Positions 47,637 through 62,724 of a stretch of 64,000 nucleotides of DNA are shown here, piece after piece; the stretch's first letter is position 1, and each line of letters starts with the position of its first letter. The notes beneath the pieces are model-generated. The model had not been told where the DNA came from, searched no databases, and saw only the letters and a list, made by a program, of their open reading frames with translations. Where the stretch lies: the sequence record NZ_CP086424.1; one strand, 5' to 3'. The DNA comes from a plasmid. The translations under genes were made by a program, and so were the position numbers.

Positions 47637-47695
47637 TTTTCTGTTTAGCAAAGGTGAGCTATATTTGAATCATCTTAGTCGCTCTGCGGCTATAG

Positions 47696-47728
47696 GTGAG
47701 ATAGCTGGTCTCCGAAAACAAACAGCAT
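47696..47728 (+). promoter_or_regulatory. Conserved promoter-like core, copy A of 5
   Basis: GTGAGATAGCTGGTCTCCGAAAACAAACAGCAT, about 100 bp upstream of ATG 47825. Confidence 0.5.
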
Positions 47729-47824
47729 CTAGTCTTATGCCGTATGGCATTACTTAACCCCAAGCCGGGGGCTTCTCCCGGTTTTCGGGTGTTGCCCCTG
47801 TTTTTTTTACATAGGAGCAACACC

Positions 47825-48145
47825 ATGCACATCATCACTTTCATTGTAGTTCTGCTTGCATCTCTGGGCGCACTGTACGTAGGCGCGAAGGCATTTGCTT
47901 TTTCCTTCATCGTTCTCGCTAAAGTGTTCCAGCGTATCGGTTTGTTCCTTTGGAACAAATTCGCAGTTCCTGCAATGCGGTCTGTACAGGCCGTCATCAA
48001 AGAACGTGCTGCCAAGGCTGAACAAGCCAAAGCAGTCGTTGAACCTGAGGTAACTCAAGTTCAAGAAGTCGCTAAACAAGAACCTGACTGGGATTATCTC
48101 GAAATCCCGACTTACCTTCGTAAGGGCAAGGAACTTGTTTGGTAA
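47825..48145 (+). CDS. Small membrane protein
   Basis: MHIITFIVVLLASLGALYVGAKAFAFSFIVLA hydrophobic N-terminus. AGGAG Shine-Dalgarno. 106 aa. Confidence 0.5.
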   Translation: MHIITFIVVLLASLGALYVGAKAFAFSFIVLAKVFQRIGLFLWNKFAVPAMRSVQAVIKERAAKAEQAKAVVEPEVTQVQEVAKQEPDWDYLEIPTYLRKGKELVW

Positions 48146-48239
48146 TAACTGTCGCTGAGTAATCTTCGACACTTTCAAACCCATCGGGGCAACCATACCC
48201 CGACGGGGATGTTGCCCCTTTTTGCTTAGGAGCAACATC

Positions 48240-48332
48240 ATGGAAATCGCTATCATCGCTTTGTGTATCCCTGCTGGTTGGGCAATCTCTCGTCCTTTCG
48301 TGAGAATCGCTGAATCGTTCGGTTACTGCTGA
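48240..48332 (+). CDS. 30-aa hydrophobic peptide
   Basis: MEIAIIALCIPAGWAISRPFVRIAESFGYC. The leader is paralogous to that of the 47825 gene. Confidence 0.3.
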   Translation: MEIAIIALCIPAGWAISRPFVRIAESFGYC

Positions 48333-48448
48333 TAGTCAACGCAAAGGGAGGGGGCAACCCCTCTCTTTCTGGTCAAGCCTCTGTGGCTTGTCCTCAAAGT
48401 CTTCTGGTGTCAGTTGGCTTTGACGACAAGCTACAGGGGGAATGTCGA

Positions 48449-48634
48449 ATGCAACAGAATCTTCATGTTTACGACGATCACGCAGGCATCATCTATCTGG
48501 CTGATGGACGCGAGGTGAAATTTGATCCGAAACTGTATTCCAGCTCCTACCAGGCGCACAGTGAAGCAGTGAAGTGGGCCAAAGAAACCGGGGTCATTGG
48601 TCAAAACGACGATGTGGTGATGTTCGTCCATTGA
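48449..48634 (+). CDS. Small hypothetical protein
   Basis: 61 aa, GGGGG Shine-Dalgarno. Confidence 0.35.
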   Translation: MQQNLHVYDDHAGIIYLADGREVKFDPKLYSSSYQAHSEAVKWAKETGVIGQNDDVVMFVH

Positions 48635-48739
48635 GGGAGTAGCCTCCAGGAGAGGCTACTCTCCTCGCTCCTTAAAAGTCTTCTTACTCATGGTGAATAC
48701 CATCAGTAAGCAGATTTTGTTCTCTTCGGAGAGCGAAAA

Positions 48740-48772
48740 GTGCGATAGCTGGTCGCCAAAAACAAACAGCAA
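48740..48772 (+). promoter_or_regulatory. Conserved promoter-like core, copy B
   Basis: GTGCGATAGCTGGTCGCCAAAAACAAACAGCAA. The region 48707–48830 is near-identical to 53542–53665. Confidence 0.5.
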
Positions 48773-48853
48773 ATTAACGTTAATTTACTAGCCCAACCGG
48801 GCGCATCCGCCCGGTTCGGGACGTGGTGCGCCTGTCACAATAGGAGCGCACCT

Positions 48854-49822
48854 ATGTCTCAATACTCTCAATTCTCAGTAAGCAAGGTTTTCGGTATGCC
48901 CAGCATTCCGGAGAAGGTAACGGCCATCGGCTACGCTGACGGTTCAAACCCTTTCATCCCTGCCACTGATACCAACTACGTTTTCCGCAAAGAGTTTCTG
49001 CGAGAGGTCTTGGCCTATCTCAAAGAGCCTGGCGGTGACGCATTGTTCGTAACCGGCCCTACCGGGTCTGGCAAAACCTCAGGTATCACCGAGATCGCTG
49101 GTCGTCTCAACTGGCCTGTTCAGCAAATCACTGCCCACGGGCGGATGGAGCTGACAGATCTGATTGGACATCACGCTCTGGTCGCGGAAAAGCCTGGTCA
49201 ACCACCTGTCATGAAGTTCATGTATGGACCTCTGGCAGTCGCTATGCGTGAAGGTCATCTGCTCCTCATCAACGAGGTGGATTTGGCCGACCCTGCCGAG
49301 CTGGCTGGTCTCAACGATGTCCTTGAAGGGCGTCCCCTTGTGATCGCTCAGAATGGCGGGGAAATCATCAAGCCGCACCCGATGTTTCGTGTGGTCGTTA
49401 CTGGTAACTCTACGGGGTCCGGTGATGCTTCTGGTTTGTACCAGGGGGTGATGATGCAGAACCTCGCAGCTATGGATCGCTATCGTTTCACCAAAGTAGG
49501 GTATGCGGATGAGGAAGCTGAACTCAGCATTCTTGGCCGTGCTACTCCGAAACTTCCGGAAAATGTGCGGAAGGGAATGGTTCGGATTGCTAATCAGGTC
49601 CGCAAACTGTTTCTTGGCGAAAACGGTGAAGATGGTCAGATCAGCGTCACCATGTCCACTCGGACGTTGGTGCGTTGGGCGAAACTGTCTCTAGCGTTCC
49701 GTGGTGCCCCAAATGCTCTTGAATACGCCTTGGATCAAGCTCTGCTTATCCGTGCGGCCAAAGAGGAGCGTGAAGCCATCCTGCGTGTTGCGAAGGATGT
49801 GTTCGGGGACCAATGGCGCTAA
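48854..49822 (+). CDS. CobS/MoxR-like AAA+ ATPase
   Basis: Walker A GPTGSGKTS. Walker B LLLINEVD. 322 aa. Confidence 0.65.
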   Translation: MSQYSQFSVSKVFGMPSIPEKVTAIGYADGSNPFIPATDTNYVFRKEFLREVLAYLKEPGGDALFVTGPTGSGKTSGITEIAGRLNWPVQQITAHGRMELTDLIGHHALVAEKPGQPPVMKFMYGPLAVAMREGHLLLINEVDLADPAELAGLNDVLEGRPLVIAQNGGEIIKPHPMFRVVVTGNSTGSGDASGLYQGVMMQNLAAMDRYRFTKVGYADEEAELSILGRATPKLPENVRKGMVRIANQVRKLFLGENGEDGQISVTMSTRTLVRWAKLSLAFRGAPNALEYALDQALLIRAAKEEREAILRVAKDVFGDQWR

Positions 49823-49832
49823 GAGGTGACGC

Positions 49833-61060: not shown

Positions 61061-61117
61061 CCCACGGGGCCGCTCTTCCTGATGGGAGACGGTCCTCCAT
61101 TCTCAAAGGAGAAGACC

Positions 61118-61309
61118 ATGAAAGATCACAGTCAAACGATTGTGTTCCCTGGGAACAATGTTGAATCACTTGCTGAGGCTAACGCCATGTTGAGCGCTGT
61201 GTCGGAAGATGCACGTAAAGCCAGCAATACGGAAGACAAACGTGACCTTGAATCGCTTCAAGGCTGGCTGGAAGAGAACATCAATTCTCAACTGGCAGGC
61301 GTGAAGTAA
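61118..61309 (+). CDS. Small hypothetical protein
   Basis: 63 aa, AAGGAG Shine-Dalgarno. Confidence 0.4.
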   Translation: MKDHSQTIVFPGNNVESLAEANAMLSAVSEDARKASNTEDKRDLESLQGWLEENINSQLAGVK

Positions 61310-61377
61310 CTATGACTGTAACCCCACTGGGGGCTTCATGCCCCTGTGGGGGCATGGTGCCCGTAAAAGGAGTCACC

Positions 61378-61731
61378 ATGAATGCAGTGAAGATGATCCA
61401 GAAGGAAAACCAGCTTGAGCTGCCGCTTTTCTTCCTGGATGAAGAGCCGAAGACCGCAGAAGTCATTCCATTTGAGCCAAAGCCTGAATGGACTGATGAT
61501 GAGGTAAGGCAGTTACGTGATGGGCTTTTATGGCATAGCCTTAGAGTCCTTGCTGATGGTCGAGCTGGAAGTGAAATCAAGCAGGAAACGATGGCTTGGG
61601 TGATGTCCGATGAGGTACATCCATTCTCATTTGTGGTCTGCTGCGATGAAGCAGGTTACGATCCATCTGGAGTAAGGGAAGGCGTGAAGTCTATCCTAAA
61701 CCGCTTAGCGCGGGTTAAAGCGGGGGGTTAA
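61378..61731 (+). CDS. Hypothetical protein
   Basis: 117 aa, AAGGAG Shine-Dalgarno. Confidence 0.45.
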   Translation: MNAVKMIQKENQLELPLFFLDEEPKTAEVIPFEPKPEWTDDEVRQLRDGLLWHSLRVLADGRAGSEIKQETMAWVMSDEVHPFSFVVCCDEAGYDPSGVREGVKSILNRLARVKAGG

Positions 61732-61756
61732 CCCCCTGCTTTCCCAGTGGCATCGA

Positions 61757-61772
61757 CTTTCACATGTGAAAG
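61757..61772. repeat. 16-bp palindrome CTTTCACATGTGAAAG, copy 4
   Basis: Flanked by the inverted repeat GCTTTCC…GGAAAGC. It lies 50 bp upstream of promoter core E. Confidence 0.9.
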
Positions 61773-61820
61773 TTTGTGCCCCTCGGAAAGCAAGATTTTG
61801 CTCTCTGTCGAGAGTGAATA

Positions 61821-61853
61821 GTGAGGTAGCTGGCCTCCCCAAACAAACAGCAT
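61821..61853 (+). promoter_or_regulatory. Conserved promoter-like core, copy E
   Basis: GTGAGGTAGCTGGCCTCCCCAAACAAACAGCAT. Confidence 0.5.
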
Positions 61854-61922
61854 TCTACATAACCCTTGGGGGATCACTGCCCCTCGGGCTGGTGGTTCCC
61901 TGACAAACATGGAGCCACAACT

Positions 61923-62267
61923 ATGACTACTCTTGCCAGCTTTGCGAATCCGATTTCTGTTATTCAACGCTCACCAACCAGTGGGGTGTTTGGCACAAAT
62001 CAGTTCGTAGGAGACAAAGAGGGATTTGTACAAAAGGTGCTCGGAAAGTGGTACTGCAATCCAGGGAATACCATTCCCGTTGAGAGCATGTCCCACCTTG
62101 AGCAGGCGGAGAAACTGTATGACTTCTATGTCAAGTATCTCCAAGTGAAAGAAAAGATCTCTGTGAACCTTGGCCGGGTGCTGCATAAGCTGTACAGCAC
62201 TGGTTCTATCAAGGAAGCAGAGATCGTGCTTGAAGCAATAAAGGCTCAGGCTGGCGTAACAGCTTGA
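61923..62267 (+). CDS. Hypothetical protein
   Basis: 114 aa. Confidence 0.45.
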   Translation: MTTLASFANPISVIQRSPTSGVFGTNQFVGDKEGFVQKVLGKWYCNPGNTIPVESMSHLEQAEKLYDFYVKYLQVKEKISVNLGRVLHKLYSTGSIKEAEIVLEAIKAQAGVTA

Positions 62268-62344
62268 GCAATCTACTAACCCTAAACCGGGTGCATCCGC
62301 CCGGTTCGGGACGTGGTGCGCCCCCAAACTATTTGGAGTGCATC

Positions 62345-62647
62345 ATGGAAAAACATAACCTCAAATCCGGATTCAGCATCTATTTCGCTGACGTCCATTT
62401 CGAGAAACAAGTCTACGCATTCGGCTCAGGACTTGGCTTCACCTCTGTGATTTACGCCTACTCGCTGGGCCGAGATCCGGAAGAAGCTGAGAAGCTGGCG
62501 CTTGAAAAGTACGACTCTGACGAAACGAAGGTGAAGAAGGTGCATGTCAATCTGGCTCGCAGCCAGGACATCAACCGCTACACCTTCCCTGAACAAATGG
62601 CTGGCTTTGCTAATGCCATTCAGTCTCACGGCATCGCTGTGAACTGA
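62345..62647 (+). CDS. Hypothetical protein
   Basis: 100 aa, TGGAG Shine-Dalgarno. Confidence 0.45.
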   Translation: MEKHNLKSGFSIYFADVHFEKQVYAFGSGLGFTSVIYAYSLGRDPEEAEKLALEKYDSDETKVKKVHVNLARSQDINRYTFPEQMAGFANAIQSHGIAVN

Positions 62648-62724
62648 GAACCACTTTAAACCCATCGGGGCCATTACTTCCCGATTGGGACGGTAGTGGC
62701 CTCTCAACCGAAAGGAGAGAGCTC

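Follow-up and report, generated by a model that had tools for sequence, protein, structure and literature searches.

The T7 early mRNA contains intercistronic RNase III sites, and the ompA leader carries a 5′ stabilizer hairpin. Ribosome standby leaders with a sequestered Shine-Dalgarno (SD) sequence, of the tisB +42 mRNA type, are said to have been described by Darfeuille in 2007 and Romilly in 2019, and T4-type phages reportedly carry promoter-early stem-loop repeats, the PeSL cassettes attributed to Arbiol et al. in 2010. Four repeat families which are used by Bet/Exo to repair Cas3 breaks were described by Roy et al. (NAR 2020, PMC7498323). One of these, rptI, consists of direct repeats which are situated between genes of pVCR94 from vcrx087 to vcrx121; the longest measures 155 base pairs (bp), and the others are partial copies (PMC7498323). 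Here, five repeats (copies A to E) in a 64,000-nucleotide stretch of the plasmid record NZ_CP086424.1, called the window in the following, were analyzed, which, judged by their spacing, are the same DNA as rptI. With a probability of about 0.6, these repeats can be regarded as a modular cis-acting mRNA leader, which would control translation initiation, and probably processing and stability, of blocks of establishment and anti-defence genes.

The repeats are distributed over a 15-kb region of IncC plasmid backbone, which is 100% identical to many IncC plasmids, e.g., pAR060302, and represents the AcaCD-controlled accessory cluster from vcrx087 to dcm, to which ssb/bet/exo and the anti-restriction genes hde belong. 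For the transfer of published pVCR94 coordinates to the window, 17410 was subtracted at vcrx087 and 18010 from vcrx098 on. Upstream of copy A, an AcaCD box was reported together with a transcription start site (TSS) mapped by 5′-rapid amplification of cDNA ends (5′-RACE) (Carraro et al., 2014, PMC4207636, Table S3), and a -10 element (TATATT) was found between the two (promoter P087, Table 1). As the box, the -10 element and the mapped TSS are all located 5′ of the conserved core of copy A, this core belongs to the transcribed leader of the vcrx087 mRNA. The only other AcaCD sites of the cluster are P098, upstream of copy D, and P114, beyond the window; a clear 5′-RACE signal was absent for P098, and chromatin immunoprecipitation with exonuclease digestion (ChIP-exo) lists an AcaCD site at none of the copies B, C and E (PMC4207636). 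In the RNA-seq data, the values for vcrx087-vcrx113 were 0–37 without acaCD and approximately 400–11,000 with it, except for vcrx097, for which they were reversed (497 without, 56 with); for vcrx088-vcrx111, about 0–20 units were given without AcaCD and about 600–11,000 with it (PMC4207636). Overall, the genes of the cluster depend on AcaCD 100- to 1000-fold. By reverse transcription PCR (RT-PCR), according to Roy et al. (2020, PMC7498323), vcrx087, vcrx089 and bet were found on a single cDNA primed at the 3′ end of vcrx094. Furthermore, a Cappable-seq study reports only 18 AcaCD-responsive promoters (Durand et al., 2021, PMC8373056). The published data and the present analysis together show that transcription starts at the AcaCD promoters P087, P098 and P114 and passes through the internal copies. 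Based on the TSS, the RT-PCR and the AcaCD dependence, copy A belongs to the 5′ untranslated region (5′-UTR), and an internal position in a polycistronic mRNA follows for copies B and C. Promoters that are constitutive or bound by AcaCD thus have no place at the internal copies.

A first-pass annotation of this DNA had described a 33-bp core in five copies, each about 100 bp upstream of the first ATG of a gene block and preceded by a hairpin with a changing stem sequence and maintained pairing, and had given about 125 bp of near-identity between copies B and C. These observations were confirmed. The degenerate 33-mer has five matches, all on the plus strand, with no mismatches in copies A to D and one in copy E, whereas 100 dinucleotide-preserving shuffles gave no match at all; each copy marks the head of a gene block. 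From the start of the core to the annotated ATG, the distances are 129, 114, 114, 102, and 102 nucleotides (nt) for copies A to E, and copies B and C share a stretch of 121 bp (48712–48832) with 100% identity. The stem of the preceding hairpin (P1) reads UUUUGUUCUC/GAGAGCGAAA in copies B and C, UUUUGUCCUC/GAGGGCGAAA in copy D and UUUGCUCUC/GAGAGUGAA in copy E, while copy A builds the same fold from an unrelated sequence, so that compensatory changes are found over all five copies. The conclusion that the structure is functional is right, and stronger than the annotation knew. A second compensatory hairpin (P2), which the annotation had missed, is located inside the core itself, with the stems GCGA/UCGC, GAGA/UCUC, and GAGG/CCUC around the loop UAGCUGG. 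The annotation was also right in that the core is distinct from the AcaCD activator box and is neither a sigma-70 nor a sigma-54 site: a scan for sigma-70 and terminator consensus sequences revealed no promoter at any copy and flagged only some of the upstream hairpins, and TGGYCK-N5-AACAA, inspected by eye for sigma-54, lacks the -12 GC. Its remark that it did not recognize a described motif holds for Rfam, which contains no such family, and fails for the DNA repeats, which were published in 2020 as rptI.

A covariance model of P1, P2 and the single-stranded tail following them was built from the five window copies. When one genome per species was scanned for the exact pattern, at least 120 stretches were obtained vs. 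about 35 expected by chance, and the model confirmed at least 102 matches at E ≤ 1e-3 in Gamma- and Betaproteobacteria. Where no particular plasmid is named, the counts given here and below refer to the matches listed. In 89 distinct sequences, aligned by fitting to the model, P2 is paired in 100% of the cells and all four of its pairs change on both sides (20, 48, 7, and 33 cells); the stems include GCGA, GAGA, GAGG, GCGG, AAGG, ACGU, GUGG, UUGG, GAAG, GUCG, GUCC, and more. P1 is paired in 85.7% of the cells, and ten of its ten pairs covary. Changes on both sides were counted in 321 cells compared to 89 in shuffles, and the pairing decreased to 59% in shuffles and to 40–53% when the 3′ partner was slid by 1–3 columns. 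The closing pair of P2 is U·G in 87 sequences and C-G and U-A in one each.

G·U pairs are present in both P1 and P2, for which the other strand would carry A·C mismatches, and the structure can therefore be assigned to the sense strand. Folding as RNA also favors the sense strand over its reverse complement, namely in 62 of 88 distinct leaders, the mean difference being 4 kcal/mol (Wilcoxon p = 2e-6). The G·U pairs, the sense folding and the start of P1 at the TSS thus point to a sense-strand RNA, and P1 and P2 are, as supported by computation, genuine helices of this strand. This argues against the promoter on single-stranded DNA which the annotation had considered, since in the Frpo type the template strand must fold. 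There, a long imperfect hairpin on the transferred (template) strand rebuilds a -35/-10 duplex, whereas the leader consists of short helices without hexamers and favors the sense strand.

The core is the center of a longer leader of about 130 nt, or about 200 nt including the upstream hairpins. Its anatomy was derived from an alignment of the five window copies and then of 21 copies from three plasmids, all located on the gene strand. Conservation and structure reach about 100 nt upstream of the core and downstream as far as the start codon. On the sense strand, the modules follow in the order P1, P2, tail (AAAYAAWCAGCA), variable linker, P3, and P4. P2 is a 4-bp stem of free sequence with a U·G closing pair and an AGCUG loop, and the single-stranded tail begins 6–8 nt 3′ of it. 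The 3′ part consists of AACCC, the GC-rich hairpin P3, GGG, and P4, whose 3′ arm carries the SD sequence GGAG and which is predicted to end 0–3 nt 5′ of the start codon. In promoter-proximal copies, the base of P1 is the exact 5′ end (+1) of the RNA. Only internal copies carry a GC-rich hairpin and then (G/A)CUUUCC at their 5′ side. The CUUUCC pairs with GGAAAG to form a long-range helix, P0, which encloses a variable hairpin and results in irregular stems predicted to span 17–23 bp in copies B to E. The base helix of P0 covaries as well, with GCUUUCC/GGAAAGC in copies C and E, CACUUUCUCAG/CUGAGAAAGUG in copy D, UCUUCUUACU/AGUAAGCAGA in copy B and CUUUCCAAA/UUUGGAAAG in the plasmid pVPH2. At copy D, the P098 AcaCD box (57245–57340 region) is located 5′ of the G-rich hairpin and P0, so that the primary transcript would open with modules which are elsewhere intergenic. 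The missing clear 5′-RACE signal at this copy may reflect rapid 5′ processing and would be consistent with a rapid loss of the primary end. A mini-ORF (open reading frame) GUG-CGA-UAG within the core is, by inspection, not conserved in the betaproteobacterial copies.

The leader is linked to the translation start of the gene downstream. The loop lies at a median distance of 100 nt from the start codon in the 119 copies with a recognizable downstream ORF. The downstream proteins belong to more than 40 unrelated clusters (Vcrx087-like, AAA-ATPase, DUF3150, SSB, DUF3799 exonuclease, and many small ORFs), and the leader is therefore a generic cassette which is not bound to a single gene. The predicted probability of an unpaired SD sequence has a median of 0.016 for leader genes vs. 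0.26 for 448 other same-strand genes of the same loci (Mann-Whitney p = 2e-8), and for 57 of the 63 distinct leaders the SD sequence is paired to an arm upstream of it in the minimum-energy fold. These computations support a model in which every leader locks the SD sequence of its downstream gene in P4. The anti-SD arm is also complementary to the 5′ arm of P3 above the level of shuffled sequences (median z = -2.0; 54% with p ≤ 0.05; Wilcoxon p = 3e-10), where the z-scores may be too high, as the GC-rich segments were shuffled by mononucleotides. RNAalifold, applied to ten leaders, picks this alternative pairing, e.g., GGGCGCAC:GUGUGCCC in copy D and GGGGAUCAC:GUGGUUCCC in copy E. As the anti-SD arm has this alternative partner, the leader could toggle between a closed and an open ribosome-binding site, with P3 and P4 formed in the putative closed state and the P3 5′ arm paired with the anti-SD arm in the open one. 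By Roy et al. (PMC7498323), a fold sequestering the ribosome-binding site upstream of vcrx089 was predicted independently.

The conservation of the element in IncC-like and pAQU-type plasmids was found with the covariance model. The complete plasmid pAR060302 contains copies A to E, copy F upstream of vcrx112, copy G upstream of vcrx120 and a degenerate copy behind P114, the latter three just beyond the window on the same plasmid. All of these copies belong to the accessory cluster; the scan of the complete plasmid revealed no copies in its tra, rep, par, and resistance regions. An Edwardsiella IncC-like plasmid carries 7(+1) copies and the pAQU-type plasmid pVPH2 9(+1), all of them intergenic and on the gene strand. 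At P114 (pAR060302 103454–103659; L137 5455–5660, beyond the window), a strong canonical terminator lies 5′ of the promoter, which is followed by a reduced leader with GGUAGCUGGCC, a shortened tail AAAACAGCA, AACCCC, P3 and an anti-SD/SD hairpin UUCUCUCC/GGAGAGAA. Thus, all three AcaCD promoters of the accessory cluster feed the leader family, and the tra promoters do not.

One complete promoter-proximal leader was identified in an SGI1-like island (OX345320.1, L124 4915–5115). It comprises an AcaCD box, a -10 element, P1, P2, the tail and the SD hairpin in the same layout as copy A, and is located 3′ of mpsA/mpsB and 5′ of an ORF for a 105-amino-acid membrane protein, presumably S018. The island apparently took over the module of promoter and leader from its helper plasmid. 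An MpsA-like neighbor gene is common to 14 loci from Vibrio, Idiomarina, Pseudoalteromonas, and others. The contigs listed by the pattern scan belong to Vibrio, Shewanella, Photorhabdus, Marinobacterium, Azomonas, Methylomonas, Comamonas, Tepidimonas, Sulfuritalea, Rhodocyclaceae, and others, and many of them contain several copies. In betaproteobacterial contigs (L007, L040, L047, L051, L053, L074, L080, and others, from Sulfuritalea, Tepidimonas, Rhodocyclaceae and relatives), the leader was found upstream of genes for SSB, RecT, a DUF3799 PD-(D/E)XK exonuclease, zinc-finger/toprim primase-like and ParB-like proteins. These belong to the same functional class as the leader genes of IncC, their proteins being distant relatives or analogues. 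A phage origin was rejected, as viral contigs (IMG/VR) gave only 1–3 weak or partial matches.

In the proposed mechanism, one leader would head each translational unit of the AcaCD-driven IncC accessory cluster. Its invariant module, formed by the U·G-closed AGCUG loop of P2 and the unstructured CA-rich tail about 60–70 nt 5′ of the SD sequence, may act as a landing or recognition platform which decides on the translation of the closed site, either as a standby site for ribosomes or by binding a ligand or a conserved trans-acting factor. The near-invariance of these 7 + 12 nt across elements with only distantly related proteins suggests a conserved partner. Candidates are a ligand, an RNase or RNA-binding protein of the host, and, at a standby site, S1 or the ribosome. 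In the internal copies, the G-rich hairpin and the 17–23 bp P0 would punctuate the polycistronic RNA, acting as a weak terminator or 3′ protector and as a processing site for RNase III/E. After processing, each block would become an mRNA opening with a protective P1, as does the primary transcript of copy A. RNase E prefers RN↓WUU, which is fitted by AG↓AUUU. This sequence (GA↓AUUU in copy D) is found between P0 and P1 in roughly every second copy, B to E among them, and its position aligns exactly with the +1 of copy A. As direct repeats, the copies also serve incidentally in single-strand annealing by Bet/Exo, the published rptI phenotype.

The proposed leader resembles the tisB type in its closed ribosome-binding site and in an unstructured stretch tens of nt upstream which is flanked by a stable 5′ structure, these structures being predicted for the leader; in the tisB type, too, the active form is set by its 5′ end, be it primary or processed. 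Unlike the tisB type, its module is invariant in sequence over two proteobacterial classes and present in 7–10 copies per element, which would not be needed for non-specific standby, and no antisense RNA partner of the leader was found in the window, in pAR060302 or in two related plasmids. With the T7 early mRNA and with 5′ stabilizer hairpins such as that of ompA, it would share several similar structured elements which punctuate one long transcript, long irregular hairpins between cistrons (here the predicted 17–23 bp P0) and, as predicted, a hairpin at the 5′ end of the unit. However, no counterpart of the conserved P2 loop and tail or of a P4 that locks the SD sequence is present at the T7 sites, and their sequence and host range are unrelated.

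Several points weigh against a translational leader of this kind. The RNase E-like site occurs in only about half of the copies, and the RNA-seq levels show no consistent jump after each leader. The complementarity of loop and tail to the E. coli 16S, 23S, and 5S rRNA is no better than that of shuffled queries, no enrichment of CCAGCTA was found, and complements of the tail in the window, the rest of pAR060302 and two related plasmids occur only at the elements themselves, which gives no antisense partner. Among the ORFs in the limited flanks of the 8-kb loci no conserved RNA-binding protein was found; the search turned up SSB, RecT, DUF3799 exonuclease, toprim, ParB-like, and MpsA/MpsB proteins. 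Finally, besides the possible inflation of the z-scores, the pair counts depend on an alignment fitted to the model, and the invariance of loop and tail is partly imposed by the sampling, i.e., by the pattern scan and by a model built from the window copies.

A further-reaching idea, which we consider speculative and rather doubtful, is that the P2 loop and CA-rich tail form a sensor domain, either a small pseudoknot aptamer or the site of one highly conserved factor, and thereby a single post-transcriptional switch of the establishment and anti-defence genes of the element. An H-type pseudoknot between loop and tail (GCUG:CAGC, with an A-rich third loop) is compatible with 99.4% of the cells. 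Its positions are invariant and give no covariation, and the rare variants AACUG and CCGC are uncompensated, which adds to the points against the preferred reading. H-type pseudoknot riboswitches (preQ1-I, SAM-II) are similar in having a short hairpin, a possible pairing of this type across an A-rich linker and an SD platform with an alternative fold. They differ in that the leader has no Rfam match at E ≤ 10, no covariation in the pseudoknot, a variable linker before the platform, and no evident ligand or gene-function logic, and the presence of many copies before unrelated genes would be atypical. No Rfam model (including PreQ1, JUMPstart, and STAXI) matched any copy at the gathering threshold, nor at E ≤ 10 over 47500–62800.

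Among the rival explanations, processive antitermination by the nascent RNA, as known for lambda nut, rrn boxB-boxA, HK022 put, and ICEBs1 conAn, stands up best and is still unlikely. The element would then re-arm the RNA polymerase to pass the terminator-like G-rich hairpin at the end of the next gene block. A hairpin with an invariant loop followed by a conserved single-stranded box directly after the promoter, as in A-type copies, would suit this function, as would the weak intrinsic-terminator shape of the GC-rich hairpin and (G/A)CUUUCC 5′ of every internal copy. The mRNA levels reveal no polarity over about 10 kb from P087, and read-through was demonstrated by RT-PCR (PMC7498323). However, the tra operons, which are equally long and AcaCD-driven, lack the element, the U-tracts of the hairpins are poor (3 U), and neither the spacing of about 100 nt to the start codon nor the specific sequestration of the SD sequence would be explained. 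No arginine-rich N-like or NusG-like gene is located beside the first copy, where Vcrx087 is a membrane protein and Vcrx088 is acidic. A boxA has the consensus CGCUCUUA or GCUCUUUAACAA and stands beside a boxB hairpin. The tail is unlike it, and the order of hairpin and box is reversed relative to nut; lambda nut and rrn boxA-boxB were accordingly rejected, as the tail by inspection gave no boxA match and the first genes include no N-like gene. The RfaH ops element (12 nt, GGCGGTAGNNTG, on the non-template strand) was rejected as well: some copies read GGCGGTAGCTGG, but its GGCG belongs to the freely covarying stem (GCGA, GAGA, AAGG, ACGU, and others), and the Rfam JUMPstart model gave no match.

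Slightly less probable is that the repeats act as a signal in single-stranded DNA during conjugation or recombination, i.e., as a G4- or ssi-type priming site, a nuclease or primase site, a Chi-like modulator of Exo, or annealing homology for Bet/Exo. The latter is the function known for rptI. In pVCR94, the distances between the copies are 10,311 bp (A-D), 9,267 bp (B-D) and 23,701 bp (B-G), compared to published deletions of 10,310, 9,268, and 23,702 bp, so that the spacing, by which the copy letters were assigned, agrees within 1 bp, and Bet/Exo does recombine the repeats. According to Roy et al. (PMC7498323), in whose work the repeats are presented only as Bet/Exo substrates and as IncC-specific, their palindromes might pause Exo, a 32-bp rptI identity in SGI1 is noted, and rptI is absent from SXT/R391. 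The 32-bp match to SGI1 was reproduced here. Beyond this account, the present analysis adds that the hairpins covary, that the architecture is one of sense-strand RNA, that every block is linked to the leader at its start codon, and that the distribution is wide. A role in single-stranded DNA would fit the neighborhood of ssb, recT/bet, exonucleases, toprim primases and ParB-like genes in Gamma- and Betaproteobacteria, as well as the layout of a hairpin with a conserved 3′ box, which is also that of relaxase and primase sites, and the CTG in the loop. Annealing, however, needs only identity within one element. It would keep the same loop and tail neither between elements whose proteins are only about 30–50% identical nor between classes, and it would not tolerate stems which differ with maintained pairing among the copies of one plasmid. 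Based on this, recombination between the copies is best seen as a by-product. The G·U pairs, among them the closing pair that is almost always U·G, favor RNA, P1 starts at the TSS, and both the sequestered SD sequence and the constant distance from the start codon belong to the RNA level. The element is rare in viral contigs although phages carry ssb and recT. A likeness to Chi (GCTGGTGG) was discarded, as the matching positions are in the freely covarying stem. The PeSL cassettes are comparable as repeated regulatory cassettes amid small variable early or accessory genes which double as recombination points for module shuffling. They contain a real early promoter, whereas the leader has none.

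Very improbable, finally, is the promoter of a dedicated regulon proposed in the first-pass annotation, whether driven by a plasmid-encoded or AcaCD-induced factor or by a hairpin in the single-stranded DNA of fresh transconjugants: the copies do head the predicted pVCR94 operons vcrx089-093, 094-095, 098-103, 107-111, and 112-113, terminator-like hairpins do precede them and hairpin promoters do exist (N4 vRNAP, Frpo), but there is no match to -35/-10 or -24/-12, core A and the SGI1 copy are located 3′ of mapped or predicted starts, the mRNA shown by RT-PCR includes copies B and C, the genes behind B, C, and E are silent without AcaCD and have no AcaCD binding site, the Cappable-seq paper reports only the 18 promoters of AcaCD (PMC8373056), and the structure is on the non-template strand.

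The coordinates of the leaders and their modules are summarized in Table 1. Downstream of traN, the genes follow in the order acaB (opposite strand), vcrx087, vcrx088, an AAA-ATPase gene and its partner (the hde anti-restriction genes vcrx089 and vcrx090), ssb, bet, exo, the DUF3150 and VWA genes, a run of small ORFs, and dcm.

Table 1. Positions of promoter P087 and of the five leaders with their predicted modules in the window.
Feature	Position	Strand	Covariance-model score (bits)	Modules and remarks
Promoter P087, AcaCD-dependent	47609..47673	+		Box 47609-47637; -10 47660-47665; TSS 47671-47673; outside the repeat
Leader A, promoter-proximal	47671..47824	+	71.7	P1 47671-47698; P2 stem 47698-47701 with 47709-47712, loop UAGCUGG 47702-47708; tail AAACAAACAGCA 47716-47727; P3 47762-47784; P4 47788-47801 with 47811-47824; SD AGGAG 47813-47817; vcrx087 ATG 47825
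Core A	47696-47728	+		+24 to +56
Leader B, internal, 5′ of vcrx089 (hde)	48635..48853	+	90.5	3′ hairpin of preceding gene 48635-48663; long P0 48675-48718; P1 48715-48738; core 48740-48772 (P2 48742-48756, tail 48760-48771); P3 and alternative pairing 48798-48834; SD 48841-48845; ATG 48854; read-through by RT-PCR (PMC7498323)
Leader C, internal, 5′ of DUF3150 gene vcrx094	53490..53688	+	91.9	G-rich hairpin 53492-53506, then GCUUUCC; P0 53507-53545; P1 53550-53573; core 53575-53607; P3 53627-53655; P4 including SD 53658-53690; ATG 53689
Leader D, 5′ of vcrx098	57245..57508	+	78.7	P098 AcaCD box 57257-57285 (TSS expected near 57320); G-rich hairpin 57324-57339; P0 57340-57380 (CACUUUCUCAG with CUGAGAAAGUG); P1 57383-57405; core 57407-57439; P3 57448-57477; P4 including SD 57479-57509; ATG 57509
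Leader E, internal, 5′ of vcrx107	61732..61922	+	83.2	Preceding G-rich hairpin begins 5′ of 61732; P0 61737-61792; P1 61797-61818; core 61821-61853, P2 stem GAGG/CCUC; P4 including SD 61892-61918; ATG 61923

The first gene behind copy A, vcrx087 (47825–48145, plus strand), encodes a protein of 106 amino acids, which begins with a membrane helix at the N-terminus. At its other end, QEPDWDYLEIPTYLRK matches the conserved C-terminal peptide of the E. coli FtsZ protein (residues 367–380, KEPDYLDIPAFLRK), with 10 of 16 residues identical and a pairwise E-value of 3e-4, and the Marinobacterium homologue retains the FtsZ-like motif (DWDVYDIPTYLRRGK). Judged from this similarity, Vcrx087 may mimic the FtsZ tail which docks FtsA, ZipA, and other partners, and would thereby tie the activation of the plasmid to cell division. 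In addition, a guanidine-II (mini-ykkC) riboswitch, unrelated to the leader, was matched at 29702–29746 on the minus strand with 47.2 bits, above the Rfam gathering threshold of 32.

Literature searches for the motif by sequence and keyword yielded nothing beyond Roy et al. (2020). Within Rfam 15 and the literature searched, the covarying sense-strand RNA leader, its position at the head of all blocks in the cluster and behind each of the three AcaCD promoters, and its sharing by pAQU-type plasmids, SGI1-like islands, and betaproteobacterial elements appear to be new. For RNA biology, a strongly covarying, multi-copy and widespread motif absent from Rfam turns a "recombination repeat" into a testable regulatory RNA. 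As the shared leader provides both an expression cassette and the homology for deleting or exchanging blocks, the gene blocks of the island are modular. Multidrug resistance has major carriers in IncC plasmids and SGI1, and the genes behind the leaders include the hde functions, by which the plasmid survives restriction and CRISPR attack on entry into a new host. Should the translation or mRNA stability of these genes be gated by the leader, it would represent a single conserved control, and possibly a point of attack, for establishment over a very broad host range. If the more doubtful sensor were true, each element would carry an RNA regulon of 7–10 identical switches, which would gate anti-restriction functions, SSB, Bet/Exo, methylases, primase, and others. 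Such a switch would be common to IncC and pAQU plasmids, SGI1-like islands, and betaproteobacterial integrative elements and would time gene expression in incoming or transferring DNA.

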